A DNA stretch of 64,000 nucleotides, from NCBI RefSeq assembly GCF_003018235.1, contig NZ_CP027437.1. One strand, 5' to 3'. The notes beneath the pieces were generated by a model, which saw nothing but the letters and a program-made list of their open reading frames with translations, made no database searches and was not told the origin of the DNA. The translations under genes were made by a program, and so were the position numbers. The DNA comes from Escherichia coli. GTDB taxonomy: Bacteria > Pseudomonadota > Gammaproteobacteria > Enterobacterales > Enterobacteriaceae. Positions 35,207 through 64,000 of the stretch are shown piece by piece; position 1 is the stretch's first letter; every line of letters starts with the position of its first letter.

Positions 35207-36256
35207 GTGCGGGTATTACTTCGACCTGTTCTGGTACCGGAACTCGGGCTGGTGGTCGTTAAGCCGGGCCGTGAATCCATGCCGGTATTCCACAATACCC
35301 GGGTACTGGTGGAGCCGGAACCGAAAAGCATGCGTAATCTGCCGTCCGGGGTCGTTCCTGCCGTTCGCCAGCCGCTGGTGGAAGACAAAACATTGCTGCC
35401 GTTTTTCAGTAACGCACGGGTAATTCGTGCTGCTGGTGGTGCTGGTGCATTGTCTGACTGGCTGTTGCGCCATATTAAATCCTGCCAGTGGCCACACGGC
35501 GATTATCATCACAGTGAAACCGTTATTCACCGTTATGGTACCGGCGCAATGGTGTTGTGCTGGCACTGCGACAACCAGCTGCGTGACCAGACATCCGAAT
35601 CACTCGAGCAACTTGCTCATCAAAACCTGTCAGCATGGATGATTGACGTCATCGGTCACGCAATAAGCGGTACGCAGGAGCGTGAATTATCTCTGGCTGA
35701 ATTATCCTGGTGGGCGGTCCGCAATCAGGTGGCGGACGCGCTACCGGAAGCGGTATTACGTCGCTCGCTGGGATTACCAGCGGAAAAAAACTGCTCGGTG
35801 TACCGCGAAAGCGACATCGTACCGGGAGAGCAGACCGCCACCAGCATATTGAAACAGCGCACAAAAAATCTTGCACCGTTGCCTCACGCCCACCAGCAAC
35901 AAAACCCATCACAGGAAAAGACGGTGGTAAGCATCACCGTTGATCCAGAGTCTCCGGAATCTTTCATGAAGCTGCCTAAACGTCACCGTTGGGTTAAGGA
36001 GAAATACACACGCTGGGTTAAGACACAGCCGTGTGCTTGCTGCGGTATGCCAGCCGACGATCCGCATCATCTGATTGGTCACGGGCAGGGCGGAATGGGA
36101 ACCAAAGCACATGATCTCTTTGTGTTGCCTTTGTGCAGAAAGCATCACGACGAGCTGCATGCGAATACCGTGGCATTTGAAGAGAAGTATGGCTCCCAGC
36201 TGGAGCTGATATTTCGTTTTATCGATCGTGCGCTGGCAATAGGCGTACTGGCGTAA
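35207..36256 (+). CDS. ydfU: DUF968 prophage protein YdfU with C-terminal HNH-like motif
   Basis: 349 aa from GTG with RBS CTGGAGG; C-terminal CACCGMPADDPHHLIGHGQ...CRKHHDELH resembles HNH/zinc-hook; size and synteny match Qin ydfU. Confidence 0.65.
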   Translation: MRVLLRPVLVPELGLVVVKPGRESMPVFHNTRVLVEPEPKSMRNLPSGVVPAVRQPLVEDKTLLPFFSNARVIRAAGGAGALSDWLLRHIKSCQWPHGDYHHSETVIHRYGTGAMVLCWHCDNQLRDQTSESLEQLAHQNLSAWMIDVIGHAISGTQERELSLAELSWWAVRNQVADALPEAVLRRSLGLPAEKNCSVYRESDIVPGEQTATSILKQRTKNLAPLPHAHQQQNPSQEKTVVSITVDPESPESFMKLPKRHRWVKEKYTRWVKTQPCACCGMPADDPHHLIGHGQGGMGTKAHDLFVLPLCRKHHDELHANTVAFEEKYGSQLELIFRFIDRALAIGVLA

Positions 36257-36269
36257 GTGGAGAACGAGC

Positions 36270-48024: not shown

Positions 48025-49532
48025 TGGCAATTCTTGATGATGTGATTGGCGTTTTTTCACCAGGATGGAAAGCGGCAAGGCTGCGTTCCCGAGCGGTGAT
48101 CCAAGCTTATGAGGCCGTAAAAACGACGCGGACACACAAAGCCCGACGGGAGAACCGAACTGCCGACCAGTTAAGCCAGTACGGGGCCGTGTCGTTACGT
48201 GAGCAGGCCCGTTACCTTGATAACAACCACGATCTGGTCATTGGTGTATCTGACAAGCTGGAAGAACGGGTGGTGGGGAAAAACGGGATTATTGTCGAGC
48301 CACATCCGGTATTACGCAATGGTGCCATTGCCCGTGACCTGGCAGCGGAGATACGTACCCGATGGAGTGAATGGTCTGTCAGTCCGGAAGTCACCGGGCA
48401 GTTTACCCGTCCGATGCTGGAACGTCTGATGCTGCGTACCTGGCTGCGCGATGGTGAGGTGTTTGCCCAGATGGTTTCCGGGCGCATAAACAGCCTGACG
48501 CCTTCTGCCGGTGTTCATTTCTGGCTGGAGGCGCTCGAGCCGGACTTTATTCCCATGACCAGTGATGAGAGCAACAGGCTGAATCAGGGCGTGTTTGTTG
48601 ATGACTGGGGGCGTCCCGAAAAATATCTGGTGTATAAAAGTCGTCCTGTATCCGGACGGCAGATGGAAACCAAAGAAGTGGATGCAGAGCGAATGCTGCA
48701 TCTTAAATTTGTTCGCCGTCTGCACCAGATGCGCGGGACGTCTTTATTGTCCGGTGTGCTGATCCGCCTCAGCGCCCTGAAAGAGTATGAAGATTCTGAG
48801 CTGACTGCAGCAAGGATCGCCGCTGCTCTGGGGATGTACATCCGGAAAGGCGACGGACAGAGCTATGAAACGGATGGTAATGACAGCAAGGAGAATGAAC
48901 GCGAGCTTACCATTCAGCCAGGCATTATTTACGACGATCTGAAACCCGGCGAAGAAATCGGAATGGTGAAGTCGGATCGTCCCAATCCTAACCTTGAAAC
49001 TTTTCGTAATGGTCAGTTGCGTGCCGTGGCGGCGGGCAGTCGTCTGAGTTTTTCCAGTACGGCACGCAACTATAACGGCACTTACAGCGCCCAGCGTCAG
49101 GAACTGGTTGAGTCTACTGATGGCTACCTGATCCTGCAGGACTGGTTTATTGGTGCCGTCACCCGCCCGATGTATCGTGCCTGGCTGAAACAGGCTGTGG
49201 CATCCGGTGTTATCAGGCTACCCCGCGATCTTGACCGTTCTTCACTGTATACCGCGGTGTATTCCGGACCAGTGATGCCGTGGATTGACCCTGTTAAGGA
49301 GGCTGAGGCCTGGAAAATCCAGATTCGTGGTGGAGCGGCGACAGAATCAGACTGGGTACGTGCTGGTGGTCGTAATCCGGATGATGTCAAACGTCGGCGC
49401 AAGGCCGAAATTGATGAAAACCGCAAGCTGGATCTGGTATTTGATACCGATCCGGCCAGTGATAAAGGAGGCAGCAGTGCCGCAACGAAACGACAGGAGC
49501 CGCAGCACACCGACGACCAGTCCGAAGAATAA
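48024..49532 (+). CDS. Portal protein (lambda gpB-like)
   Basis: 502 aa from MAILDDVIGVFSPGWKAARLRSRAVIQAYEAV; track ORF carries an upstream extension overlapping W. Confidence 0.8.
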   Translation: MAILDDVIGVFSPGWKAARLRSRAVIQAYEAVKTTRTHKARRENRTADQLSQYGAVSLREQARYLDNNHDLVIGVSDKLEERVVGKNGIIVEPHPVLRNGAIARDLAAEIRTRWSEWSVSPEVTGQFTRPMLERLMLRTWLRDGEVFAQMVSGRINSLTPSAGVHFWLEALEPDFIPMTSDESNRLNQGVFVDDWGRPEKYLVYKSRPVSGRQMETKEVDAERMLHLKFVRRLHQMRGTSLLSGVLIRLSALKEYEDSELTAARIAAALGMYIRKGDGQSYETDGNDSKENERELTIQPGIIYDDLKPGEEIGMVKSDRPNPNLETFRNGQLRAVAAGSRLSFSSTARNYNGTYSAQRQELVESTDGYLILQDWFIGAVTRPMYRAWLKQAVASGVIRLPRDLDRSSLYTAVYSGPVMPWIDPVKEAEAWKIQIRGGAATESDWVRAGGRNPDDVKRRRKAEIDENRKLDLVFDTDPASDKGGSSAATKRQEPQHTDDQSEE

Positions 49533-49545
49533 TTCCTGGTTCAGG

Positions 49546-51504
49546 ATGCAGGCTGGTCACCAGAGTGACGCGGATATTTATATTTATGACGAGATTGGTT
49601 TCTGGGGTGTTACAGCGAAGCAGTTTATCAGTGATCTGAATGCACTGGGCGATATCACCCACATTAATCTCCATATTAATTCACCGGGTGGCGATGTCTT
49701 TGAAGGCATCGCCATTTTTAATGCGCTGAAAACACATGGTGCGTCCATTACCGTTTATGTCGACGGTGTGGCGGCGTCAATGGCGTCGGTCATTGCGATG
49801 GTGGGAAACCCGGTCATTATGCCGGAAAACACTTTCATGATGATTCATAAACCATTTGGCTTTACGGGCGGTGATGCGGAGGACATGCGCACCTATGCCG
49901 ACCTGCTCGATAAAGTTGAGGCGGTTCTGTTACCCGCTTATGCACAGAAAACCGGGAAAACCACCGATGAAATTGCTGCCATGCTGGCGGATGAGACCTG
50001 GATGTCCGGTGCCGAATGTCTGGCACATGGATTTGCTGATCAGGTAACGCCAGCCGTTAAGGCAATGGCATGTATTCAGTCAAAACGTACAGAGGAATTT
50101 AAAAAGATGCCGGAATCCATTCGAAACATGATTACTCCGCCACGCAACAGTGCTCCACGCGTACAGGATGATGAACCTGCAGCCTCCCGGACGCCAGTGC
50201 AGGCAGCAGCACCCGTGGTGGATGAAAACAGTATCCGTGCGCAGGTACTGGCAGAGCAAAAAGCGCGTGTAAACGGTATTAATGATCTGTTTGCCATGTT
50301 TGGCGGGCGTTATCAGACTCTGCAGGCTCAGTGTCTTGCCGATCCTGAATGTTCGCTGGAGCAGGCCCGCGAAAAGCTGTTGAACGAGATGGGGCGCGAG
50401 TCCACGCCATCCAATAAAAATACCCCGGCTCATATTTATGCCGGTAACGGTAATTTTGTGGGGGACGGGATCCGCCAGGCGCTGATGGCGCGTGCCGGAT
50501 TTGAAAAAACCGAACGTGATAATGTCTACAACGGGATGACCCTGCGTGAATATGCCCGTATGTCACTGACTGAACGGGGTATTGGGGTTTCCAGTTATAA
50601 CCCGATGCAGATGGTCGGTGCGGCGTTCACACACAGTACGTCTGACTTCGGTAATATTCTGCTGGATGTTGCGAACAAAGCCATTCTGCAGGGCTGGGAA
50701 GATGCTCCTGAAACCTATGAACAGTGGACGCGGAAAGGTCAGTTGTCTGATTTTAAAATTGCCCATCGTGTGGGTATGGGGGGCTTCAGTGCTCTGCGTC
50801 AGGTGCGTGAAGGGGCGGAATATAAATACGTCACCACCGGAGATAAACAGGCCACTATTGCACTGGCGACCTATGGCGAGCTGTTCAGTATCACCCGTCA
50901 GGCCATTATCAATGATGATCTGAATATGCTGACCGATGTCCCGATGAAGCTGGGCCGTGCGGCGAAATCCACCATTGCCGATCTGGTTTATGCCATTCTG
51001 ACGTCTAACCCGAAAATCTCCACAGATAATGTAAGTCTGTTCGATAAAGCGAAACATGCAAACGTACTGGAGAGCGCTGCAATGGACGTGGCATCGCTGG
51101 ATAAAGCCCGCCAGTTGATGCGCGTTCAGAAAGAGGGGGAGCGTCATCTGAATATTCGTCCTGCGTTCGTACTGGTACCGACGGCGATGGAGTCTGTTGC
51201 TAACCAGGTCATTCGCTCCTCAAGTGTCAAGGGGGCTGACATTAACGCCGGTATTATTAACCCGGTGAAAGATTTTGCGACCGTTATTGCAGAGCCTCGT
51301 CTTGATGATAACAGCCAGACCACCTTCTACCTGGCTGCGTCCAAAGGCTCCGATACGATTGAAGTGGCTTATCTCAACGGTGTGGATACGCCATATATTG
51401 ATCAGATGGAGGGCTTCAGTGTGGATGGCGTGACAACGAAAGTGCGTATTGACGCCGGTGTCGCGCCAGTTGATCACCGCGGTCTGGTGAAATGTACGGC
51501 GTAA
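49546..51504 (+). CDS. Prohead protease (ClpP/S49-like) - scaffold - HK97-fold major capsid fusion protein
   Basis: 652 aa from MQAGHQSDADIYIYDEIGFWGV; N-terminal ClpP-like domain (INSPGGDVFEGIAIFNAL...ASMASVIAM), Ala/Gln-rich coiled linker, C-terminal ~350-aa capsid domain. Confidence 0.75.
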   Translation: MQAGHQSDADIYIYDEIGFWGVTAKQFISDLNALGDITHINLHINSPGGDVFEGIAIFNALKTHGASITVYVDGVAASMASVIAMVGNPVIMPENTFMMIHKPFGFTGGDAEDMRTYADLLDKVEAVLLPAYAQKTGKTTDEIAAMLADETWMSGAECLAHGFADQVTPAVKAMACIQSKRTEEFKKMPESIRNMITPPRNSAPRVQDDEPAASRTPVQAAAPVVDENSIRAQVLAEQKARVNGINDLFAMFGGRYQTLQAQCLADPECSLEQAREKLLNEMGRESTPSNKNTPAHIYAGNGNFVGDGIRQALMARAGFEKTERDNVYNGMTLREYARMSLTERGIGVSSYNPMQMVGAAFTHSTSDFGNILLDVANKAILQGWEDAPETYEQWTRKGQLSDFKIAHRVGMGGFSALRQVREGAEYKYVTTGDKQATIALATYGELFSITRQAIINDDLNMLTDVPMKLGRAAKSTIADLVYAILTSNPKISTDNVSLFDKAKHANVLESAAMDVASLDKARQLMRVQKEGERHLNIRPAFVLVPTAMESVANQVIRSSSVKGADINAGIINPVKDFATVIAEPRLDDNSQTTFYLAASKGSDTIEVAYLNGVDTPYIDQMEGFSVDGVTTKVRIDAGVAPVDHRGLVKCTA

Positions 51505-51524
51505 ACGTCGCAGACAACAACTCT

Positions 51525-51547
51525 GATGGCCCGTAAGGGCTTTTTTT
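51525..51547 (+). terminator. Possible rho-independent terminator after capsid gene
   Basis: Short hairpin ggccc-gtaa-gggc followed by ttttttt. Confidence 0.4.
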
Positions 51548-51590
51548 GTACCTGAAATCAGCCTCTGAACGGGGCTGTGCGGAGACAGTT

Positions 51591-51914
51591 ATGGCAAAGA
51601 ATTTTGTAGAAGAAGGAAAAACGGTGGCGATTGTTGCCAGTGCAGCCATCAGCAGCGGAGATCTGGTGCAGGTGGGTGATGTTTTTGCGGTGGCGCTGAC
51701 CGATATTCCACAGGGTGAAACAGGCGACGGCATGACCGAAGGTGTGTTTATCCTGCCTAAACTGAAAACGGATGACATGAAAACGGGTAAGAAGGTTTAT
51801 CTGAAGTCCGGAAAAGTTCAGCTGACTAACAGCGGCTCTGATCCGCTGGTCGGGGTTGTCTGGGCAGATGCCGGAACCAGTGCAGAAGAAGTGCCGGTAA
51901 AACTCAATGTCTGA
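51591..51914 (+). CDS. Small head protein (decoration or head-completion protein, unassigned)
   Basis: 107 aa from MAKNFVEEGKTVAIVASAAISSGDLVQVGDVFAVALTDI after RBS GGAG; position directly after capsid gene. Confidence 0.5.
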   Translation: MAKNFVEEGKTVAIVASAAISSGDLVQVGDVFAVALTDIPQGETGDGMTEGVFILPKLKTDDMKTGKKVYLKSGKVQLTNSGSDPLVGVVWADAGTSAEEVPVKLNV

Positions 51915-52182
51915 TCCCTTTTCCCGGCTGGCAGCGCGTATGGATGCGATCACGGTCAGAAAGATGGGAAAGACAGCCTCGATTAATGATGTCGATATGG
52001 CTGTGATCCCGGGCGAAACACTGGCAGAGCTGAATGCTCTGTCCGGACCTGCGGTCTCTCTGGTGGTGTTTTCTTCGGGATACCGCCCACGGCGCGGGGA
52101 TCGCGTTGTTTATGACGGACAACAATGGACGGTCACACGGCATGAACGTTTTAACGGTAAGCCAATGATCTTTATTGAGTAA
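51907..52182 (+). CDS. Head-tail connector / head completion protein (FII-like position)
   Basis: 91-aa ORF overlapping the previous gene by 8 nt, upstream of gpZ homologue. Confidence 0.5.
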   Translation: MSDPFSRLAARMDAITVRKMGKTASINDVDMAVIPGETLAELNALSGPAVSLVVFSSGYRPRRGDRVVYDGQQWTVTRHERFNGKPMIFIE

Positions 52183-52193
52183 AGAGGTGTGGG

Positions 52194-52772
52194 ATGAAGG
52201 GGCTTGAGAATGCCATCCGCAATCTGAACAGCCTTGATACCCGTATGGTGCCACAGGCCAGCGCATGGGCGATAAACCGTGTGGCACAGAAAGCGGTCTC
52301 GGTTGCCACCCGGCAGGTTGCCGGGAATACCGTTGCGGGAGATAACCAGGTGAAAGGGATCCCCCTGAAACTGGTACGTCAGCGTGTCCGGGTGTTTAAA
52401 GCCAGTCCGTCAGGAAAAATGACGGCCAGGATCCGCGTTAACCGGGGCAATCTGCCCGCCATTAAGCTGGGGACAGCCCGGGTCAGACTGGCCCGGCGTG
52501 GTGGAAAACTGCAGTACCGTGGCAGTGTGCTGAAGGTGGGTAAATATCTTTTCCGGGATGCGTTTATTCAGCAACTGGCGAATGGTCGCTGGCATGTGAT
52601 GCGGCGTATTGATGGCAAAAATCGTTACCCCATTGATGTGGTGAAAATCCCGCTGTCCGGACCGCTGACACAGGCATTTGAAGATGCCCGCGACCACATC
52701 ATTGCTGCGGAAATGCCGAAACAGCTGGGGTATGCACTGAAACAACAACTGAGGTTATGGCTGACCCGATGA
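52194..52772 (+). CDS. Minor tail protein Z (lambda gpZ-like)
   Basis: 192 aa, same length and position as lambda Z; RBS GAGGTG. Confidence 0.7.
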   Translation: MKGLENAIRNLNSLDTRMVPQASAWAINRVAQKAVSVATRQVAGNTVAGDNQVKGIPLKLVRQRVRVFKASPSGKMTARIRVNRGNLPAIKLGTARVRLARRGGKLQYRGSVLKVGKYLFRDAFIQQLANGRWHVMRRIDGKNRYPIDVVKIPLSGPLTQAFEDARDHIIAAEMPKQLGYALKQQLRLWLTR

Positions 52773-53170
52773 ACCGGCATACACAAATCCGCCAGGCCGT
52801 ACTGGCACGCCTTCGGGAACAGTGTGGAGACAGCGCCACGTTTTTTGACGGGCTTCCGGCATTTATTGATGTGCAGGAACTGCCTGCCGTGGCGGTGTGG
52901 CTGAGTGATGCTCAGTACACCGGAAAAATGACGGATGAAGATGACTGGCAGGCTGTTCTGCATATTGCCGTCTTCATCCGGGCACAGGCACCGGATTCAG
53001 AGCTGGATATGTGGATGGAGAGCACCATTTTCCCTGCCCTGAATGATATACCGGCACTTTCCGGACTCATCGACACCCTGATCCCACTCGGTTTTAACTA
53101 TCAACGTGATAATGAGATGGCCACCTGGGCGATGGCGGAAATCACGTACCAGATCACGTACACGAATTAA
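52757..53170 (+). CDS. Tail terminator protein U (lambda gpU-like)
   Basis: 137 aa, overlaps Z stop, precedes major tail gene. Confidence 0.7.
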   Translation: MADPMNRHTQIRQAVLARLREQCGDSATFFDGLPAFIDVQELPAVAVWLSDAQYTGKMTDEDDWQAVLHIAVFIRAQAPDSELDMWMESTIFPALNDIPALSGLIDTLIPLGFNYQRDNEMATWAMAEITYQITYTN

Positions 53171-53180
53171 GGAGGTGGTA

Positions 53181-53924
53181 ATGACCACACCAAATCCACT
53201 GGCAAAGACGAAAGGTGCGGGGACGACGTTCTGGATGTATACCGGCAACGGCGATGCGTTTGCGAACCCTTTGTCGGACACTGACTGGCTGCGTCTTGCG
53301 ATGGTGAAGGATCTGCAACCTGGCGAAATGACCGCTGATGCAGAAGATGACACTTATCTCGATGATGAAGATGCAGACTGGAAAACGACAACCCAGGGGC
53401 AGAAATCCGTTGGTGATACTTCGGCGACGCTGGCCTGGCGTCCGGGTGACAGCGGGCAGAAAAAACTGGTTCAGTTGTTCGACTCCGGTGAAGTCTGCGC
53501 GTTTCGTATCAAATATCCCAACGGCACTGTTGATGTTTTCCGTGCCTGGCTGAGCTCACTGGGTAAAACCATTGCCTCAAAAGACGTGATGACCCGCACT
53601 GTGAAAATCAGCGGTGTGGGGCGTCCGTATCTGGCAGAGGAAGGCACTGAAACCGTGAGCGTTACCGGGCTGACAGTATCACCGGCGTCTGCCAGTGTAA
53701 AAGTGGGAGCAACCACCACGCTGACCTTTACAGTAAAACCTGACGGAGCCAGTGACAAAGCGATCAGTGTGCATTCGTCAGATCCACAGACTGCCACGGT
53801 TACCCTGAACGGACTTGTGGCCACGGTAAAAGGCGTGAAGCAGGGCAGTGTCAGCATTGTGGGCATGACCGCTGACGGGAATTTTGTGGCTGTGACTGCG
53901 GTGACTGTCAGCGCAGCAGGTTAA
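53181..53924 (+). CDS. Major tail protein V with C-terminal Ig-like (Big_2-type) domain
   Basis: 247 aa from MTTPNPLAKTKGAGTTFWMY after RBS AAGGAGGTGG; C-terminal beta-rich repeat VSVTGLTVSPASASVKVGATTTLTFTVKPDGASDKAISVHSSDPQTATVT. Confidence 0.8.
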   Translation: MTTPNPLAKTKGAGTTFWMYTGNGDAFANPLSDTDWLRLAMVKDLQPGEMTADAEDDTYLDDEDADWKTTTQGQKSVGDTSATLAWRPGDSGQKKLVQLFDSGEVCAFRIKYPNGTVDVFRAWLSSLGKTIASKDVMTRTVKISGVGRPYLAEEGTETVSVTGLTVSPASASVKVGATTTLTFTVKPDGASDKAISVHSSDPQTATVTLNGLVATVKGVKQGSVSIVGMTADGNFVAVTAVTVSAAG

Positions 53925-53981
53925 CAGGACGATACTCATCATTTGCCCCGGTTATGCGGGGCTTTTTTGCAGGTGGAGAAC

Positions 53982-54371
53982 ATGATGTTTCTGAAACAGG
54001 ACACGTTTAATTATGAAAAACAGTCCGTGGTGCTCAGTGAGCTGTCCGGGCTGCAGAGAATTGAATATCTGACGTTTGTTCAGCAGCGAACGGCAAAGTT
54101 TGATGCCGGGGAGGGAGAACTGCCGGAGGCTGAACGACAGATTGCTTTTCTGCGGATGGGGATGGATATCAATGCCTGGCTGGTTTCCCGCTCACTGTGG
54201 AATGCGGATCAGTCTAAGGATGTAGAGACGCTTTGCGCATCCGTTATTACAACATGGTCGTATGATGCCCTGGGTGCGGGGGCGGAGATGGTTCTGTCGC
54301 TGAGCGGTATGGGGGCCATTGATAATGCCGTGGATGATGAGCATGAGGCGCTGACGCCGGAAAAGTCCTGA
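53982..54371 (+). CDS. Tail assembly chaperone G (lambda gpG-like)
   Basis: 129 aa from MMFLKQDTFNYEK after RBS GGTGGAG; followed by -1 frame T ORF. Confidence 0.75.
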   Translation: MMFLKQDTFNYEKQSVVLSELSGLQRIEYLTFVQQRTAKFDAGEGELPEAERQIAFLRMGMDINAWLVSRSLWNADQSKDVETLCASVITTWSYDALGAGAEMVLSLSGMGAIDNAVDDEHEALTPEKS

Positions 54372-54709
54372 CGCGGGAAATGCAGTTTGTCATGCGGCTT
54401 GCCCGGGAGTTCCGGCGGGCAGACTGGCGGCGGATGCTGTCGGAAATGTCGGCCACTGAGCTTGGTGAGTGGGGCGATTATTTCCGGATGCAGAGCTTCA
54501 GTGATGTGTGGATGGATGCGCAGTTTGCCTCGCTGAAGGCATTGATCGTGATAATGGTGTCCGGCAGCAGTGATGCTGCGGTGGCTGATTTCAGCCTTTT
54601 ACCGGAAGAGAACGGGATACCGGAGCGAACGGACGAAGAACTGATGCATCTTGGGGAAGGTATTTCCGGAGGTGTGCGTTATGGAGCAGATAGCCAACCT
54701 GGTCATTGA
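54359..54709 (+). CDS. Tail assembly chaperone T portion, expressed as G-T fusion by programmed -1 frameshift
   Basis: T frame is -1 relative to G and is open only from 54347 (three stop codons at 54335-54346); candidate slippery heptamer G_GAA_AAG at 54359-54365, just before G stop. Confidence 0.65.
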   Translation, partial: GKVLTREMQFVMRLAREFRRADWRRMLSEMSATELGEWGDYFRMQSFSDVWMDAQFASLKALIVIMVSGSSDAAVADFSLLPEENGIPERTDEELMHLGEGISGGVRYGADSQPGH

Positions 54710-57700
54710 TTTGGGGATTGATGCGGCAGAGTTTAAAAATGAAATTCCCCGTATCAAAAACCTTCTGAATGGTGCAGCCAGCGATGCAGAACGGTCTTCT
54801 GCCCGTATGCAGCGTTTTATGGAGCGTCAGACTCAGGCCGCCCGGCAGACAACGCAGGCAGCTTCTTCGGCTGCAACAGCCGCATCCGTCCATGCGCAGA
54901 CGGTGGAGAAGAACGCACAGGCTCATGAACGCATGGCCCGCGAGGTGGAGAAAACCCGCCAGCGCATGGAGGCACTGAGCCAGAAAATGCGCGAGGAACA
55001 GGCGCAGGCCATGGCTCTGGCGGAGGCTCAGGATAAAGCGGCTGCTGCGTTTTATCGTCAGATTGACAGTGTGAAACAGGCCAGTGCGGGGCTGCAGGAA
55101 TTACAGCGTATTCAGCAGCAGATCCGACAGGCCAGAAACAGTGGCGGGATTGGTCAGCAGGATTATCTGGCGCTGATTTCTGAGGTTACTGCGAAAACCC
55201 GTGTTCTTACACAGGCTGAGGAAGAGGCTACCCGACAGAAAGTGGCGTTTATCCGTCAGCTTAAAGAGCAGGCAACCCGCCTGAATCTTTCATCTTCTGA
55301 GTTGCTTCGTGCTAAGGCAGCCCAGCTGGGGGTAAGCAGTGCTGCAGAAGTGTATATCCGCAAAATGGAGCATGCAGGAAAAGCCACGCATTCGCTGGGT
55401 CTGAAAAGTGCATCAGCCCGCCAGGAGATAGGCGTTCTGATAGGTGAACTGGCCCGCGGCAATTTAGGGGCGCTGAGGGGATCCGGGATAACGCTGGCTA
55501 ACCGTGCCGGATGGATAGACACACTGATGTCACCGAAAGGCATGATGCTTGGCGGGGTTATTGGCGGTATTGCCGCGGCCGTCTATGGTCTGGGTAAAGC
55601 CTGGTATGACGGTCAGAAGGAGGGGGAAGAATTTAACCGCCAGTTGTCGCTGACGGGGCATTATGCCGGAGTCACTGCCGGGCAGCTGTGGACGCTCAGT
55701 CGTGCTATTTCCGGGAATGGTATCACGCAACATGCTGCAGCCGGTGCGCTGGCTCAGGTGGTGGGGAGTGGTGCATTTCGTGGAAACGATATCGGTATGG
55801 TGGCGAGAGCTGCCGCACAGATGGAGCGATCGGTTGGCCAGTCGGTCAGCGATACCATAAATCAGTTTAAGCGGCTGAAGGATGATCCTGTAAATGCCGC
55901 GAAGGCTCTGGACAATGAGCTGCATTTTCTTACTGCCACTCAGCTTGAGCAGATACGCGTCCTTGGGGAGCAGGGGCGGTCCAGTGATGCTGCACGGATA
56001 GCCATGTCTGCACTGGCAGAGGAAACCGGTCGGCGTACTGCGGATATTGATAATAACCTCAATGCGCTTGGCAGTACGCTGAAGTATCTGTCTGATTTGT
56101 GGAGTCGTTTCTGGGATGCGGCCATGAATATTGGTCGTGAAGACTCGCTGGATGAACAGATTGCCGCTTTACAGGAGAAAGTGTCGCGGGCGAAAAGACT
56201 CCCCTGGACGGCATCATCTTCTCAGGTTGAATACGATCAGCAGCGTCTTAACGATCTTCAGGAGAAAAAACGCCAGAAGGATTTGCAGGATGCAAAAGAG
56301 CAGGCAGAGCGGAATTATCAGGAGCAACAGAAACGCCGTAATGCTGAAAATGCTGCACTGAACCGGATGAATGAAACGGAAGCAGCACGACATCAGCGTG
56401 AAATTGCGCGTATTAATGCCATGCAGTACGCCGATCAGGCTGTCAGGGATGCGGCGATACAACGTGAAAATGAACGTTACGAGAAAGCCCTGGCATCCGG
56501 TAAGAAAAAAACACGCGAAACCCGTAATGATGAGGCCACCCGGTTATTGCTGCAGTACAGTCAGCAACAGGCACAGGTGGAAGGACAGATTGCTGCTGCC
56601 AGACAGTCAGTAGGCATTGCCACGGAAAGGATGACAGAAGCGCATAAACAGCTTCTGGCTCTGCAGCAGCGCATCAGCGACCTAGACGGGAAAAAACTTA
56701 CGGCAGATGAAAAGAGTGTGCTGGCCCGTAAAGATGAACTGATTCAGGCACTGACGCTGCTGGATGTAAAACAGCAGGAGCTTCAGAAACAGACGGCACT
56801 CAACGAGCTGAAGAAAAAAACAATTCAGCTGACCAGTCAACTGGCTGAAGAAGAGCGCGCTCAGCGTCAGCAACATGACCTGGATATCGCCACGGTGGGT
56901 ATGGGTGATCAGCAGCGACAGCGATATCAGGTACAACTGAGTCTTCGCCAGAAATACCAGCAACAGCTGGAGCAGTTGAGGCGGGATAGTGAGCAGAAAG
57001 GGACATATAACACGGATGACTACAGAAAGGCCGAGCAGGCGCTGACGGAGAGCCTGAACCGACAACTGAATGAGAATCGCCGTTACTGGCAACAGCTTGA
57101 AGTTGTGCAGGGTAACTGGAAAAACGGAGTCCTGCGTGCATTTCAGGATTTTACCGTGGATGCAGATAATACGGCAGAAACAGCAGAACAGGTGTTCTCG
57201 TCAGCCTTCAGCAACATGGGAAATGGCCTGGCAACTTTTGTCACTACCGGCAAACTCAATTTCAAATCCTTCACCTCTTCTGTGCTGTCAGATATGGCGA
57301 AAATCCTGGCGCAGGCAACCATGATGAAATCGATAAAAGGGATTGGCAGTGTACTGGGATTTGATCTCAGCAGCCTTTCCCTGAATGCCAATGGGGGGAT
57401 TTATCAGTCTGCTGATTTGAGTCGTTACAGTGGCACGGTGGTTAACCGTCCGACGTTTTTTGCTTTTGCAAAAGGCGCGGGTGTGATGGGGGAAGCGGGA
57501 CCTGAAGCCATTCTGCCATTGCGTCGTGGTGCTGACGGTAAGCTGGGGGTTGTGGCGGATATTGGGGGTTCAGGTATGGCGATGTTTTCCCCGCAGTACA
57601 ACATCGAGATCAATAACGATGGCACGAACGGGCAGATAGGTCCGGCTGCCCTGAAGGCGGTTTATGACCTCGGGAAAAAAGCGGCAGCGGACTTTATGCA

Positions 57701-57746
57701 ACAGCAGGCCCGTGATGGTGGTCGGTTAAGTGGAGCATATCGGTAA
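54681..57746 (+). CDS. Tail tape measure protein (lambda gpH-like)
   Basis: 1021 aa from MEQIANLVIDLGIDAAEF after RBS GGAGGTG; long coiled-coil Gln/Ala/Arg-rich central region, Gly-rich C-terminal part. Confidence 0.85.
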   Translation: MEQIANLVIDLGIDAAEFKNEIPRIKNLLNGAASDAERSSARMQRFMERQTQAARQTTQAASSAATAASVHAQTVEKNAQAHERMAREVEKTRQRMEALSQKMREEQAQAMALAEAQDKAAAAFYRQIDSVKQASAGLQELQRIQQQIRQARNSGGIGQQDYLALISEVTAKTRVLTQAEEEATRQKVAFIRQLKEQATRLNLSSSELLRAKAAQLGVSSAAEVYIRKMEHAGKATHSLGLKSASARQEIGVLIGELARGNLGALRGSGITLANRAGWIDTLMSPKGMMLGGVIGGIAAAVYGLGKAWYDGQKEGEEFNRQLSLTGHYAGVTAGQLWTLSRAISGNGITQHAAAGALAQVVGSGAFRGNDIGMVARAAAQMERSVGQSVSDTINQFKRLKDDPVNAAKALDNELHFLTATQLEQIRVLGEQGRSSDAARIAMSALAEETGRRTADIDNNLNALGSTLKYLSDLWSRFWDAAMNIGREDSLDEQIAALQEKVSRAKRLPWTASSSQVEYDQQRLNDLQEKKRQKDLQDAKEQAERNYQEQQKRRNAENAALNRMNETEAARHQREIARINAMQYADQAVRDAAIQRENERYEKALASGKKKTRETRNDEATRLLLQYSQQQAQVEGQIAAARQSVGIATERMTEAHKQLLALQQRISDLDGKKLTADEKSVLARKDELIQALTLLDVKQQELQKQTALNELKKKTIQLTSQLAEEERAQRQQHDLDIATVGMGDQQRQRYQVQLSLRQKYQQQLEQLRRDSEQKGTYNTDDYRKAEQALTESLNRQLNENRRYWQQLEVVQGNWKNGVLRAFQDFTVDADNTAETAEQVFSSAFSNMGNGLATFVTTGKLNFKSFTSSVLSDMAKILAQATMMKSIKGIGSVLGFDLSSLSLNANGGIYQSADLSRYSGTVVNRPTFFAFAKGAGVMGEAGPEAILPLRRGADGKLGVVADIGGSGMAMFSPQYNIEINNDGTNGQIGPAALKAVYDLGKKAAADFMQQQARDGGRLSGAYR

Positions 57747-58075
57747 TGGAGACGTTTCACTGGAAAGTGCGCCCGGATATGAATGTGGTATCAGAGCCGA
57801 AAGTGGTGACAGTGAAGCTGGGCGATGGTTATGAACAGCGTCGTGCGGCGGGACTGAATAACCAGTTGTCGACTTACAGCGTGACGATACGTGTTCGTAA
57901 ATGTGAACACCCATCTTTAAAAGCCTTTCTGGAACGGCACGGTGGCGTCCGTGCATTTCAGTGGACGCCACCTTATGACTGGAAACCGATCAGGGTGGTT
58001 TGTCGTAAATGGTCGGCAAGCGTGGGGGCGCTGTGGGTAACCATAACGGCAGATTTTGAACAGGTCGTGGCATAG
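57746..58075 (+). CDS. Minor tail protein M (lambda gpM-like)
   Basis: 109 aa, same length as lambda M; start overlaps H stop. Confidence 0.8.
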   Translation: METFHWKVRPDMNVVSEPKVVTVKLGDGYEQRRAAGLNNQLSTYSVTIRVRKCEHPSLKAFLERHGGVRAFQWTPPYDWKPIRVVCRKWSASVGALWVTITADFEQVVA

Positions 58076-58084
58076 GAGGCTCTG

Positions 58085-58783
58085 ATGCAGGATATTCCAC
58101 AGGAAACACATCATGAGACGACACGCCTCACTCAGTCAGCCCAGGTGGTGCTATGGGAAATCGATCTGGCAGAGGTCGGTGGTGAACGTTATTTTTTCTG
58201 TAATGAGCAGAACGAAAAAGGTGAGCCGGTTATCTGGCAGGGGCGGCAGTATCAGGTATACCCCATTCAGGGGACGGGATTTGAACTGAACGGCAAGGGC
58301 AGTGCTGCCCGTCCGACACTGACGGTTTCTAACCTGCACGGCATGGTCACCGGGATGGCGGAAGACCTGCAGAGTCTGGTCGGAGGAACGGTGGTCCGGC
58401 GTAAGGTTTACGCCCGTTTTCTGGATGCGGTGAACTTCGTCAACGGAAACAGTGACGCCGATCCGGAGCAGGAGGTGATCAGCCGCTGGCGCATCGAGCA
58501 GTGCAGCGAACTGAGCGCGGTGAGTGCCTCTTTTGTACTGTCCACGCCGACGGAAACGGACGGTGCCGTTTTTCCGGGACGTATCATGCTGGCCAACACC
58601 TGCACCTGGACCTATCGCGGTGATGAGTGCGGTTATCACGGTCCGGCGGTCGCGGATGAATATGATCAGCCGACGTCCGATATCACGAAGGATAAATGCA
58701 GCAAATGCCTGAGCGGCTGTAAGTTTCGCAATAACGTCGGCAACTTTGGCGGCTTCCTTTCCATTAACAAACTTTCGCAGTGA
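58085..58783 (+). CDS. Minor tail protein L (lambda gpL-like)
   Basis: 232 aa, same length as lambda L; C-terminal Cys cluster CSKCLSGCKF. Confidence 0.8.
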   Translation: MQDIPQETHHETTRLTQSAQVVLWEIDLAEVGGERYFFCNEQNEKGEPVIWQGRQYQVYPIQGTGFELNGKGSAARPTLTVSNLHGMVTGMAEDLQSLVGGTVVRRKVYARFLDAVNFVNGNSDADPEQEVISRWRIEQCSELSAVSASFVLSTPTETDGAVFPGRIMLANTCTWTYRGDECGYHGPAVADEYDQPTSDITKDKCSKCLSGCKFRNNVGNFGGFLSINKLSQ

Positions 58784-59532
58784 ATCCCATGACAGAGACA
58801 GAATCAGCGATTCTGGCGCACGCCCGGCGATGTGCGCCAGCGGAGTCGTGCGGCTTCGTGGTGAGAACACCGGAGGGGGAAAAATATTTTCCCTGCGTGA
58901 ATATCTCCGGTGAGCCGGAGGAGTATTTCCGGATGTCGCCGGAGGACTGGCTGCGGGCAGAGATGCAGGGTGAGATTGTGGCGCTGGTCCACAGCCACCC
59001 CGGTGGTCTGCCCTGGCTGAGTGAGACCGACCGGCGGCTGCAGGTGCAGAGTGATTTGCCGTGGTGGCTGGTTTGCCGGGGGGCGATTCACAAGTTCCGC
59101 TGTGTGCCACATCTTTCCGGGCGGCGCTTTGAGCACGGGGTGACGGACTGTTACACGCTGTTCCGGGATGCTTACCATCTGGCGGGGATTGAGATGCCGG
59201 ATTTTCATCGCGAGGATGACTGGTGGCGTAACGGTCAGAATCTCTATCTGGATAATCTGGAGGCCACAGGGCTGTATCAGGTGCCGTTGTCAGCGGCGCA
59301 GCCGGGCGATGTGCTGCTGTGCTGTTTTGGTTCATCGGTGCCGAATCATGCCGCCATTTACTGTGGTGACAGCGAGCTGCTGCACCATATTCCTGAACAA
59401 CTGAGCAAACGAGAGAGGTACACCGACAAATGGCAGCGACGCACACACTCCCTCTGGCGTCACCGGGCATGGCACGCATCTGCCTTTACGGGGATTTACA
59501 ACGATTTGGCCGCCGCATCGACCTTCGAGTGA
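58780..59532 (+). CDS. Tail assembly protein K (JAMM/Mov34 + NlpC/P60 domains)
   Basis: 250 aa; JAMM motif VHSHPGG and NlpC/P60-like Cys-His region; overlaps L stop. Confidence 0.8.
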   Translation: MNPMTETESAILAHARRCAPAESCGFVVRTPEGEKYFPCVNISGEPEEYFRMSPEDWLRAEMQGEIVALVHSHPGGLPWLSETDRRLQVQSDLPWWLVCRGAIHKFRCVPHLSGRRFEHGVTDCYTLFRDAYHLAGIEMPDFHREDDWWRNGQNLYLDNLEATGLYQVPLSAAQPGDVLLCCFGSSVPNHAAIYCGDSELLHHIPEQLSKRERYTDKWQRRTHSLWRHRAWHASAFTGIYNDLAAASTFE

Positions 59533-60077
59533 AAACGGGGTCCGAAGCCATCCGGGCGCTGGCCATGCAGATCCCGGCGTTTCGTCAGAAACTGAGCGAC
59601 GGCTGGTACCAGGTACGCATTGCCGGGCGTGATGCAGGTGAAACCGAATTGTCTGCCCGTCTTAATGAGCCGCTGGCAAATGGTGCCGTGATCCACATCG
59701 TGCCGCGTCTGGCGGGAGCTAAAAGTGGCGGTGTGTTTCAGGTGGTGCTGGGGGCGGCGCTGATTGCGGTGGCATGGTGGAACCCTGTGGGCTGGCTGGG
59801 TGCCGCGGCTGTATCGGGCATGTATGCGGCAGGGGCCAGTATGATCCTGGGCGGAGTGGCGCAGATGCTGGCACCGAAAGCCAGGACGCCCACGGCAGCA
59901 AGTACAGATAACGGCAAACAGAACACCTATTTCTCCTCACTGGATAACATGGTTGCCCAGGGCAATGTTCTGCCCGTTCTGTACGGTGAAATGCGCGTGG
60001 GGTCGCGGGTGGTCTCTCAGGAGATCAGCACGGCAGACGAAGGGGATGGTGGTCAGGTTGTGGTGATTGGTCGCTGA
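59430..60077 (+). CDS. Tail assembly protein I (lambda gpI-like)
   Basis: 215 aa MAATHTLPLASPGMARICLYGDLQRFGRRIDLRVK...; overlaps 3' end of K in another frame. Confidence 0.75.
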   Translation: MAATHTLPLASPGMARICLYGDLQRFGRRIDLRVKTGSEAIRALAMQIPAFRQKLSDGWYQVRIAGRDAGETELSARLNEPLANGAVIHIVPRLAGAKSGGVFQVVLGAALIAVAWWNPVGWLGAAAVSGMYAAGASMILGGVAQMLAPKARTPTAASTDNGKQNTYFSSLDNMVAQGNVLPVLYGEMRVGSRVVSQEISTADEGDGGQVVVIGR

Positions 60078-60137
60078 TGAAAAACGTTTTATGTGAAACC
60101 GCCTCCGGGCGGTTTTGTCGTTTATGGAGCGTGAGGA

Positions 60138-63100
60138 ATGGGTAAAGGCAGCAGTAAGGGGCATACTCCGCGCGAAGCGAAGGACAACCTGAAGTCCACG
60201 CAGTTGCTGAGTGTGATCGATGCCATCAGCGAAGGGCCGGTTGAAGGTCCGGTGGACGGATTAAAAAGCGTGCTGCTGAACAGTACGCCAGTGCTGGACA
60301 CTGAGGGGAATACCAACATCTCCGGCGTCACGGTGGTGTTCCGGGCCGGTGAGCAGGAGCAGACTCCGCCGGAGGGGTTTGAATCCTCCGGTTCCGAGAC
60401 GGTGCTGGGTACGGAAGTGAAATATGACACGCCGATCACCCGCACCATCACGTCGGCAAACATCGACCGTCTGCGCTTTACCTTCGGTGTGCAGGCACTG
60501 GTGGAAACCACCTCAAAGGGGGACAGGAATCCATCGGAAGTCCGCCTGCTGGTTCAGATACAGCGTAACGGTGGCTGGGTGACGGAAAAAGACATCACCA
60601 TTAAGGGCAAAACCACCTCGCAGTATCTGGCCTCGGTGGTGGTGGATAACCTGCCGCCGCGCCCGTTTAATATCCGGATGCGCAGGATGACGCCGGACAG
60701 CACCACAGACCAGCTGCAGAACAAAACGCTCTGGTCGTCATACACCGAAATTATCGATGTGAAACAGTGCTACCCGAACACGGCACTGGTCGGCGTGCAG
60801 GTGGACTCGGAGCAGTTCGGCAGCCAGCAGGTGAGCCGTAATTATCATCTGCGCGGGCGTATTCTGCAGGTGCCGTCGAACTATAACCCGCAGACGCGGC
60901 AATACAGCGGTATCTGGGACGGAACGTTTAAACCGGCATACAGCAACAACATGGCCTGGTGTCTGTGGGATATGCTGACCCACCCGCGCTACGGCATGGG
61001 GAAACGTCTTGGTGCGGCGGATGTGGATAAATGGGCGCTGTATGTCATCGGCCAGAATTGCGACCAGTCGGTGCCGGACGGCTTTGGCGGCACGGAGCCG
61101 CGCATCACCTGTAATGCCTGGCTGACCACACAGCGCAAGGCGTGGGATGTGCTCAGTGATTTCTGCTCGGCGATGCGCTGTATGCCGGTATGGAACGGGC
61201 AGACGCTGACGTTCGTGCAGGACCGGCCATCGGATAAGGTGTGGACCTATAACCGCAGTAATGTGGTGATGCCGGATGATGGCGCGCCGTTCCGCTACAG
61301 CTTCAGCGCCCTGAAGGACCGCCATAATGCCGTTGAGGTGAACTGGATTGACCCGAACAACGGCTGGGAGACGGCGACAGAGCTTGTTGAAGATACGCAG
61401 GCCATTGCCCGTTACGGTCGTAATGTCACGAAGATGGATGCCTTTGGTTGTACCAGTCGGGGGCAGGCACACCGCGCCGGGCTGTGGCTGATTAAAACGG
61501 AGCTGCTGGAGACGCAGACCGTGGACTTCAGCGTGGGCGCAGAAGGGCTTCGCCATGTACCGGGCGATGTCATTGAAATCTGCGATGATGACTATGCGGG
61601 GATCAGCATCGGCGGGCGCGTGCTGGCGGTGAACAGCCAGACCCGGACGCTGACGCTCGACCGTGAAATCACGCTGCCATCCTCCGGTACCACGCTGATA
61701 AGCCTGGTTGACGGAAGTGGCAATCCGGTCAGCGTGGAGGTCCAGTCCGTCACCGACGGCGTGAAGGTGAAAGTGAGCCGTGTTCCTGACGGCGTTGCAG
61801 AATACAGCGTGTGGGGGCTGAAGTTGCCGACGTTGCGCCAGCGCCTGTTCCGCTGTGTGAGTATCCGTGAGAACGATGACGGCACGTATGCCATCACTGC
61901 CGTGCAGCATGTACCGGAAAAAGAGGCCATCGTGGATAACGGGGCGCACTTTGACGGCGACCAGAGCGGCACGGTGAATGGTGTCACGCCGCCAGCGGTG
62001 CAGCACCTGACCGCCGAAGTCACCGCAGACAGCGGGGAATATCAGGTGCTGGCGCGCTGGGACACGCCGAAGGTGGTGAAGGGCGTGAGCTTCCTGCTCC
62101 GTCTGACCGTAACAGCGGATGACGGCAGTGAGCGGCTGGTCAGCACGGCCCTGACGACGGAAACCACATACCGCTTCAGGCAACTGGCGCTGGGGCGTTA
62201 CACGCTGACGGTCCGGGCGGTAAATGCGTGGGGACAGCAGGGCGATCCGGCATCGGTATCGTTCCGGATTGCCGCACCGGCTGCGCCGTCGCGGATTGAG
62301 CTGACGCCGGGCTATTTTCAGATAACCGCCACGCCGCATCTTGCGGTTTATGATCCGACGGTACAGTTTGAGTTCTGGTTCTCGGAAACGCGGATTACCG
62401 ATATCAGGCAGGTTGAAACCACAGCCCGCTACCTTGGCACGGGGCTGTACTGGATAGCCGCCAGTATCAATATCAAACCGGGCCATGATTATTACTTTTA
62501 TATCCGCAGTGTGAACATCGTTGGCAAATCGGCATTCGTGGAGTCCGTCGGTCGGGCGAGCGATGATGCGGAAGGTTACCTGGATTTTTTCAAAGGCAAG
62601 ATAACCGAATCCCATCTCGGCAAGGAGCTGCTGGAAAAAGTCGATCTGACGGAGGATAACGCCAGCAGACTGGATGAGTTTTCGAAAGAGTGGAAGGATG
62701 CCAACGATAAATGGAATGCCATGTGGGCTGTCAAAATTGAGCAGACCAAAGACGGCAAACATTATGTCGCGGGTATTGGCCTCAGTATGGAGGACACGGA
62801 GGAAGGCAAACTGAGCCAGTTTCTGGTTGCCGCTAACCGTATCGCGTTTATTGACCCGGCAAACGGGAATGAAACGCCGATGTTTGTGGCGCAGGGCAAT
62901 CAGATATTCATGAACGACGTGTTCCTGAAACGCCTGACGGCCCCCACCATTACCAGTGGTGGAAATCCACCGGCATTTTCCCTGACACCGGATGGGCGGC
63001 TGACGGCGAAAAATGCCGATATCAGCGGTAACGTGAATGCGAACTCCGGGACGCTCAACAACGTCACGATTAACGAGAACTGTCGGGTTCTGGGAAAACT

Positions 63101-63533
63101 GTCCGCGAACCAGATTGAAGGCGATCTCGTTAAAACAGTGGGCAAAGCTTTCCCCCGGGACTCCCGTGCACCGGAACGGTGGCCATCAGGGACCATTACC
63201 GTCAGGGTTTATGACGATCAGCCGTTTGACCGGCAGATTGTTATTCCGGCGGTGGCATTCAGCGGCGCTAAACATGAGAGAGAGCATACTGATATTTACT
63301 CCTCATGCCGTCTGATAGTGCGGAAAAACGGTGCTGAAATTTATAACCGTACCGCGCTGGATAATACGCTGATTTACAGTGGCGTTATTGATATGCCTGC
63401 CGGTCACGGTCACATGACGCTGGAGTTTTCGGTGTCAGCATGGCTGGTAAATGACTGGTATCCCACAGCAAGTATCAGCGATTTGCTGGTTGTGGTGATG
63501 AAGAAAGCCACCGCAGGCATCAGTATCAGCTGA
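60138..63533 (+). CDS. Host specificity / central tail fibre protein J
   Basis: 1131 aa (lambda J is about the same length); RBS GAGGAATG; fibronectin-III-like central repeats. Confidence 0.85.
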
Positions 63534-63553
63534 ATTTTATAACCCATATACGG

Positions 63554-63578
63554 GCACCAGAAATGGTGCTTTTTTTTT
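63554..63578 (+). terminator. Rho-independent terminator after J
   Basis: gcacca-gaaa-tggtgc followed by ttttttttt. Confidence 0.75.
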
Positions 63579-63599
63579 GCAGAAAAGCGAGAGGTAATT

Positions 63600-64000
63600 A
63601 TGCGTAAACTTTATGCCGCCATTTTGTCCGCAGCCATTTGTCTGGCCGTATCCGGTGCGCCTGCATGGGCATCTGAACATCAGTCCACGCTGAGCGCGGG
63701 GTATCTTCATGCCTCGACGAACGTTCCCGGCAGCGATGATCTTAACGGGATTAACGTGAAATACCGTTATGAGTTTACGGACACACTGGGGCTGGTGACG
63801 TCATTCAGCTATGCAGGAGACAAGAATCGCCAGCTTACCCGTTACAGCGATACCCGCTGGCATGAAGATTCCGTTCGTAACCGCTGGTTCAGCGTGATGG
63901 CGGGGCCGTCTGTGCGCGTGAATGAATGGTTCAGCGCGTATGCGATGGCGGGTGTGGCTTACAGCCGTGTGTCGACTTTCTCCGGGGATTATCTCCGCGT
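63600..64000 (+). CDS. lom: Lom/Ail-family outer membrane protein, 5' part (gene continues beyond window end)
   Basis: [59 protein letters not shown]... signal peptide plus beta-barrel strands; RBS GAGAGG; position after J as in lambda. Confidence 0.75.

Follow-up and report, generated by a model that had tools for sequence, protein, structure and literature searches.

We propose that the open reading frame at 53181-53924 (+ strand) of the window, by which we mean the whole stretch of 64,000 nucleotides of Escherichia coli DNA analysed here, encodes a gpV-type tail tube protein of an mEp460/cdtI-like lambdoid prophage. The protein would combine a hexameric-ring tube domain with an outer, accessory Big_2 immunoglobulin (Ig)-like module that raises infectivity, and we put the probability of this reading at about 0.95. 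Judged by its sequence, the gene is the orthologue of bacteriophage lambda gene V within an mEp460/cdtI-like lambdoid E. coli prophage, and every sequence-testable defining feature of the gpV family and of Big_2 was found in it; no observation speaks against this identity. The locus itself is already known: lambda gpV is a textbook example of the arrangement, and annotations of several deposited phages include this allele. A first-pass annotation had called 53181-53924 a major tail protein with a C-terminal Ig-like domain, and both parts of that description are borne out below.

The V reading frame opens with an ATG at 53181, closes with a TAA at 53922-53924 and specifies 247 aa, the coordinates of the first-pass annotation being exact. 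Its ribosome-binding site is strong. A Shine-Dalgarno motif, AAGGAGG, read from the sequence at 53169-53175 (+), stands 5 nt before the ATG; the preceding gpU-like gene ends in a TAA (53168-53170) with which the motif overlaps. Three parts of the product can be delimited, all encoded on the + strand: an N-terminal tube-forming domain (aa 1-156, 53181-53648), in which the Pfam family Phage_TTP_12 occupies aa 18-152 (53232-53636); a variable inter-domain linker, EEGTETVS (aa 153-160, 53637-53660); and the C-terminal Big_2 Ig-like domain (aa 157-247, 53649-53921), in which the Pfam Big_2 match occupies aa 161-238 (53661-53894). Three further open reading frames in the same stretch, at 53471-53866 (-), 52997-53353 (-) and 53338-53553 (+), were considered and set aside as by-products of the V frame, their best Pfam E-value being 0.06. 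A search of 52500-55000 on both strands against Rfam returned no family at E<=0.1.

The assignment of the tube domain is carried by profile and structure-database matches that agree with one another. Phage_TTP_12 (PF16461) aligns along its whole length (profile positions 1-135 of 135) with aa 18-152, at E=7e-67 and 223.9 bits against a cut-off of 26.1, and the PHROG 41 profile, named 'major tail protein', covers the protein from end to end (1-246) at E=1.8e-123. When PDB sequences were searched, the top match was gpV of phage YDC107 (9mfe), at full length and E=1.1e-88. The lambda gpV chains 6p3e and 7t4f matched the V protein at E of about 1e-86, with 3e-86 over 1-245 for 6p3e, and the gpV N-domain chains 2k4q and 7t2e at about 1e-65 (7.6e-65 for 2k4q). 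Together with collinearity with lambda gpV, these matches uphold the name major tail protein.

For the C-terminal part, the first-pass annotation had described the last ~90 aa as β-rich and Big_2-type, and had named a Big_2 profile search as the check. That search found the domain: profile positions 2-76 of 79 of Big_2 (PF02368) align with aa 161-238 at E=2.1e-12, and the 47.3 bits obtained compare with a gathering score of 22.8. The NMR chain of the lambda gpV C-domain, 2l04, matches aa 160-245 by sequence with E=4.7e-14. An AlphaFold2 model was built from an alignment of 27 sequences, and its mean pLDDT is only 67. Within aa 163-244 it places eight β-strands with block-mean pLDDT values of 85-94, so the description of the segment is accurate. 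We confidently predict that aa 157-247 form an eight-stranded Ig-like β-sandwich. The low-confidence parts of the model include aa 1-9, 48-79, 129-138 and 144-156, pLDDT falling below 50 at aa 144-156. In monomeric gpV studied by NMR the disordered loops are 1-14, 50-78 and 149-153 (PMC8718954); the weak parts of the model at aa 1-9, 48-79 and 144-156 lie near these loops, and aa 129-138 are a further weak part of the model.

Comparison of the predicted fold with known structures leads to the same family. When the whole model was compared with the PDB by Foldseek, lambda gpV chains ranked first, and the C-domain superposed on 2L04 with a TM score of 0.82 and an rmsd of 2.8 Å over 88 columns, which, with the sequence match to the same structure, agrees with the earlier remark that the domain is seen in lambda gpV. 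The C-domain also matched the Big_2 domain of a Paenibacillus β-1,3-glucanase (7quz/7r3t) with an rmsd of 1.4-1.7 Å (1.5 Å for BglH, 7quz), as well as T5 pb6 and the capsid Ig-like domains of N4 and phi29. Addition of the Ig domain by a programmed frameshift, as in SPP1 gp17.1*, was considered and rejected: there is a single open reading frame, with the Ig domain in frame with the tube domain.

The neighbourhood of the gene follows the canonical Z-U-V-G-T-H tail order. Before V stand a gpZ-like gene at 52194-52772 (Minor_tail_Z, E=1.1e-76) and the gpU-like tail terminator gene at 52757-53170 (Phage_tail_U, E=1.8e-60). After it come the gpG chaperone gene at 53985-54371 (ATG at 53985; Phage_TAC_2, E=3.7e-40), a gpT segment in the -1 frame at 54380-54709 (Phage_tail_T, E=3.9e-14) and the gene for a lambda-type tape measure protein at 54681-57746 (TMP_2/Tape_meas_lam_C), all of them on the + strand. 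Before gpZ lie the cement protein and then a Gifsy-2-family small head-tail protein. This tail gene order matches the RefSeq annotation of the E. coli E2865 prophage and that of phage mEp460_ev081. In the head region, a ClpP-like protease is fused to the major capsid protein at 49576-51501 (CLP_protease + Phage_capsid_4) and is followed by the cement (decoration) protein at 51588-51911; the non-lambda-like head module as a whole occupies 49285-51911. Because a lambda-type tail is thus combined with a head of the ClpP-protease/capsid-fusion type, we regard the prophage as a mosaic lambdoid element of mEp460/cdtI type.

Several other features of the prophage were observed along the way. The gpG frame ends in ...CCG GAA AAG TCC TGA (window 54355-54380), with the gpT-like open reading frame in the -1 frame, a layout compatible with the programmed -1 frameshift between G and GT that lambdoid tails conserve, with GGAAAAG as the candidate slip site. 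The lambda G/GT slip site is GGGAAAG. At window 36001-46000 the G+C content is 0.36-0.46, and the structural genes after it reach about 0.52-0.59. The low-G+C part probably corresponds to the prophage's lysis and accessory/moron region; in relatives cspI, ynfN and gnsB occupy the matching region. The best 20-kb matches to window 44000-64000, in NZ_CP075852.1, NZ_AP045181.1 and NZ_CP075697.1, are 99.8% identical and aligned in two pieces, and in these three records the match spans about 1.26 kb more than it does in the window. The excess suggests either an insertion in those genomes, possibly an IS element, or a deletion in the head-tail module of the window.

In the 60-nt spacer between V and gpG, at 53945-53968 (+), lies a hairpin resembling an intrinsic terminator, GCCCCG-GTTATG-CGGGGC followed by TTTTTT. 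Its stem and T-run are kept in Ayreon, mEp460, Tritos and cdtI, where changes are confined to the loop, and the records of mEp460 and Ayreon label it a rho-independent terminator. In lambda, by contrast, the V-G spacer measures 15 nt and is without a hairpin. Partial termination at this candidate site is a possible means by which the abundant tube protein would be made in excess over the chaperones and the tape measure protein.

How widely is this form of V distributed? At the DNA level the gene is 99.9% identical to those of mEp460_ev081 and PhiR55_1 and 96-98% identical to those of Tritos, cdtI, Ayreon and phi458. Across the whole set of mEp460-type relatives, which comprises mEp460, mEp460_ev081, PhiR55_1, cdtI, Tritos, Ayreon, phi458 and E. 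coli alleles (e.g. WP_000211132.1), DNA identity ranges from 95.8 to 99.9%. It extends over the full gene, and the relatives share equal length, the same flanking genes and the post-V terminator. A recent domain swap at the linker was examined and rejected, all relatives at 95-99.9% being collinear and none bearing a foreign C-domain. The V gene was matched in 2,631 of the 5,426 complete E. coli genomes, with at least 95% identity in 1,822 of the matching genome records, and phages of this family are frequent in E. coli of human and cattle origin. In a large protein collection, 672 clusters match the V protein. Almost all homologues among the 120 matches listed carry both PF16461 and PF02368, which gives substance to the statement of the first-pass annotation that the domain is conserved here.

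The exceptions among the listed homologues consist of read-through or fused gene calls, internal duplications, V-J fusions and a Big_2 deletion. The last of these is found in a Shigella dysenteriae allele (P0075/P0076/P0078), present on 83 contigs, which is 227 aa long and has lost 20 aa in frame inside Big_2. In some E. coli prophage deletion remnants the V N-domain is fused to the C-terminus of gpJ. Variant homologues of the V protein also include P0101/P0115 and P0013/P0074. The internal tube/Ig duplications seen in some homologues may be assembly artefacts.

A single substitution sets the window allele apart. At base 53545 (codon 53544-53546) GGC is replaced by GCC, and Ala122 stands in the tube-forming N-domain in place of Gly122, a residue present in all 87 of the other full-length homologues including lambda gpV, where the motif reads VFRGW. 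Nothing but this base separates the window allele from its nearest counterparts in phages and E. coli (99.9% identity). Ala122 may have arisen by private mutation or by sequencing error, or may signal an impaired prophage copy; that it marks a tail-defective copy we consider very improbable.

The two domains of the protein evolve at different rates. Summed over pairs among nine close relatives, pN/pS comes to 0.035 in the tube domain; the Ig domain, at 0.24, has a value about seven times higher. These ratios are to be read as descriptive only, since pairs drawn from nine relatives are not independent. Across 88 full-length homologues the linker has the highest mean column entropy, 1.02 bits, followed by the C-domain with 0.84 and the N-domain with 0.35. 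The Ig domain is under purifying selection, several-fold weaker than that acting on the tube domain. Only P187, A205 and G222 are invariant within it in the 88 sequences, and P168 is nearly so. Along the Ig strands low and high entropy tend to alternate in the same sequences, as is expected of a β-sandwich with a constrained core and a freely varying surface.

The relatives of the Ig domain extend well beyond tails. When aa 157-247 alone were compared with phage genomes by tblastn, 500 phage records with a related Big_2 were recovered. These relatives sit in tail tube, capsid decoration, head and fibre proteins, of phages with both Gram-negative and Gram-positive hosts. Outside the family the top match, at 52.6%, is to a decoration protein from Acinetobacter phage Presley; lambda gpV stands at 43.4%. 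Genes of Salmonella phages annotated as 'structural protein with Ig domain' likewise reach about 49% and thus exceed lambda gpV. The pattern hints at an exchange of modules between the tail and head proteins of unrelated phages, and Ig-like domains of phages have been described as 'promiscuous' in their distribution (PMC9022992).

What does an Ig-like domain contribute to a tail tube? Following the lambda homologue, residues 1-156 would assemble into hexameric rings, stacked on one another around the tape measure protein to give a non-contractile tail tube, and residues 157-247 would be carried as a Big_2 sandwich on a short variable linker outside the tube, in six copies per ring, as in lambda. 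Most likely the Ig domain is not needed for building the tube and acts as an accessory module by which infectivity is increased. Part of the gain would come from contacts to neighbouring subunits and from Ig-Ig pairing at the outside of the tube; a hypothetical further contribution is weak attachment of low specificity to glycans on the cell surface. We infer surface display, the assembly role and the quantitative phenotype from lambda, in which loss of gpVC, the C-terminal domain, lowers activity about 100-fold and tails still form (PMC8718954). In the lambda tail gpVC lies parallel to the tube and makes an extra intra-ring contact to the neighbour's β1-β2 loop, and a surface network has been proposed (PMC8718954). 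On every ring three protrusions are seen, a pair of gpVC domains making up each of them (PMC10721106), and three ordered arrangements of Ig domains on the tube have been described for Ur-lambda tails (PMC12617516). The FN3 domain of the SPP1 tail tube is dispensable for infection (PMC8718954), and the lambda gpVC phenotype may therefore not transfer. The identity of only 44% to lambda in the C-domain leaves room for a surface chemistry unlike that of lambda.

The principal function of the domain can be read in several ways. It is a fair prospect, though held tentatively and short of even odds, that the domain is mainly a structural brace in assembly, its intra-ring contacts and Ig pairing improving tail yield or stability with no external ligand. 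In lambda the domain touches neighbouring subunits along the tube, and a structural role is suggested on that account (PMC8718954). The proposed surface network points the same way, as do the 100-fold drop in activity (PMC8718954), the two gpVC domains per protrusion (PMC10721106), a pN/pS of 0.24 and the retention of the Ig domain in almost all listed homologues. A brace is harder to square with the assembly of lambda tails without the domain (PMC8718954), with its poor order in cryo-EM maps (PMC10721106, PMC9022992), with a constraint about 7-fold weaker than on the tube domain, and with the highly variable linker. The parallel placement of the lambda domain and its contacts with neighbouring subunits (PMC8718954) argue in turn against its being mainly a weak adhesin, a reading that we regard as possible but doubtful. 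Here the many tail copies would putatively bind LPS/O-antigen, capsule or peptidoglycan fragments; equally doubtful is the attendant notion that such a low-affinity hold keeps the phage near the cell until gpJ meets its receptor. Weak carbohydrate adhesion, which the first-pass annotation had rightly offered as a supposition, was proposed by Fraser et al. 2006, and the hypothesis is repeated in PMC10721106 and PMC9022992, but it 'remains to be experimentally verified' in the words of PMC8718954, and PMC9022992 terms carbohydrate adhesion by phage Ig-like domains speculative. Its appeal lies in the spread of Big_2 over several exposed classes of virion protein, as expected of a generic surface module, and in surface-type positions that vary faster than in the tube domain. 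The closest non-phage structure is also a Big_2 beside a carbohydrate-binding module, in the β-1,3-glucanase 7quz, but the title of that entry names CBM56, not Big_2, as the glycan-binding part.

Adhesion to animal rather than bacterial surfaces appears unlikely. On this reading the domain would attach to mucus or epithelial glycans and retain the phage in the gut mucosa, in the manner of the 'bacteriophage adherence to mucus' model suggested for T4 Hoc. The phage family is indeed common in human and cattle E. coli, and mucin binding by the Ig-like domains of Hoc is cited in PMC9022992, but Hoc carries domains of the I-set family and not of Big_2 (PMC9022992). Ig-like-domain proteins of gut phages are reported to mediate epithelial adhesion, one of them with a single Big2-type domain; the phages concerned, however, infect Bacteroidota and mostly bear multi-domain adhesins (PMC13370021). 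Still less probable, indeed very improbable, is that the divergence of the Ig domain records adaptive tuning or swapping, among E. coli prophages, of specificity for host surfaces or mucus; were this true, Ig alleles would influence the O-antigen/capsule types or the gut niches that a lambdoid phage can exploit. The least credible reading, to which we give hardly any weight, makes the domain a neutral passenger or decaying relic in this prophage. Damaged natural variants exist (the S. dysenteriae deletion on 83 contigs and the V-gpJ fusions of E. coli remnants), and reviews record Ig-like domains as dispensable in some other phages. Nevertheless, a neutral passenger is largely refuted by the signal of purifying selection, with pN/pS well below 1 and the reading frame intact. 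Lineages of E. coli, Salmonella and lambda also retain the domain, the fold-core residues being preserved even where identity falls to 44%, and its removal from lambda has a 100-fold phenotype (PMC8718954). We rate a structural or assembly role slightly above weak glycan adhesion because the gpVC data from lambda are structural and carbohydrate adhesion is called unverified or speculative; mucus adhesion and absence of function are rated less likely. The structural, adhesive and mucus roles are not mutually exclusive and can coexist.

The locus can safely be annotated as a tail tube protein of gpV type that ends in a Big_2 domain, and it marks the tail module of an mEp460/cdtI-like lambdoid prophage. 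Beyond correct annotation the finding has little significance. It makes a small addition to the question of Ig domains on tail tubes, namely that constraint acts on the Ig domain too, though several-fold more weakly than on the tube domain that bears it.

Among known systems, lambda gpV is built to the same design. The lambda protein, taken from NC_001416 for global alignment, has 246 aa and aligns with the 247 aa of the window protein without internal gaps at 55% identity overall. The identity is distributed unevenly: the N-domain (aa 1-152) reaches 62.5% and the Ig domain (aa 161-247) 43.7%, and in the linker (aa 153-160) one residue of eight agrees. Both proteins consist of the same two domains, Phage_TTP_12 and Big_2, and are encoded in the same slot between U and G/T/H. 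The segment YLDDEDADW at aa 59-67 is identical in the two and belongs to the long loop with D61 and D62; among 27 homologues D61 is invariant and D62 nearly so, and in lambda gpV the changes D61A/D62A in this loop block ring-on-ring growth of the tube (PMC8718954). Structures of lambda gpV are available as PDB 6P3E, 7T4F and 8K36, with 2K4Q for the N-domain and 2L04 for the C-domain. The V protein of Escherichia phage YDC107 (9MFE) is a lambda-like allele, about as far from the window protein as lambda gpV itself. The head differs, in that lambda has a C/Nu3/D/E module and the window prophage one of the ClpP-protease/capsid-fusion type. More distant parallels are offered by T5 pb6 (5NGJ), the N4 capsid decoration protein and the phi29 capsid BIG2 domain, which display an appended or C-terminal Big_2 at the virion surface (PMC8718954). 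For T5 pb6 and the other Big_2 phage proteins sequence identity reaches only 13-20%. The T5 tube is also built differently, pb6 having a duplicated tube domain that forms trimeric rings and an Ig domain set orthogonal to the tube (PMC8718954), in contrast to the parallel gpVC of lambda.
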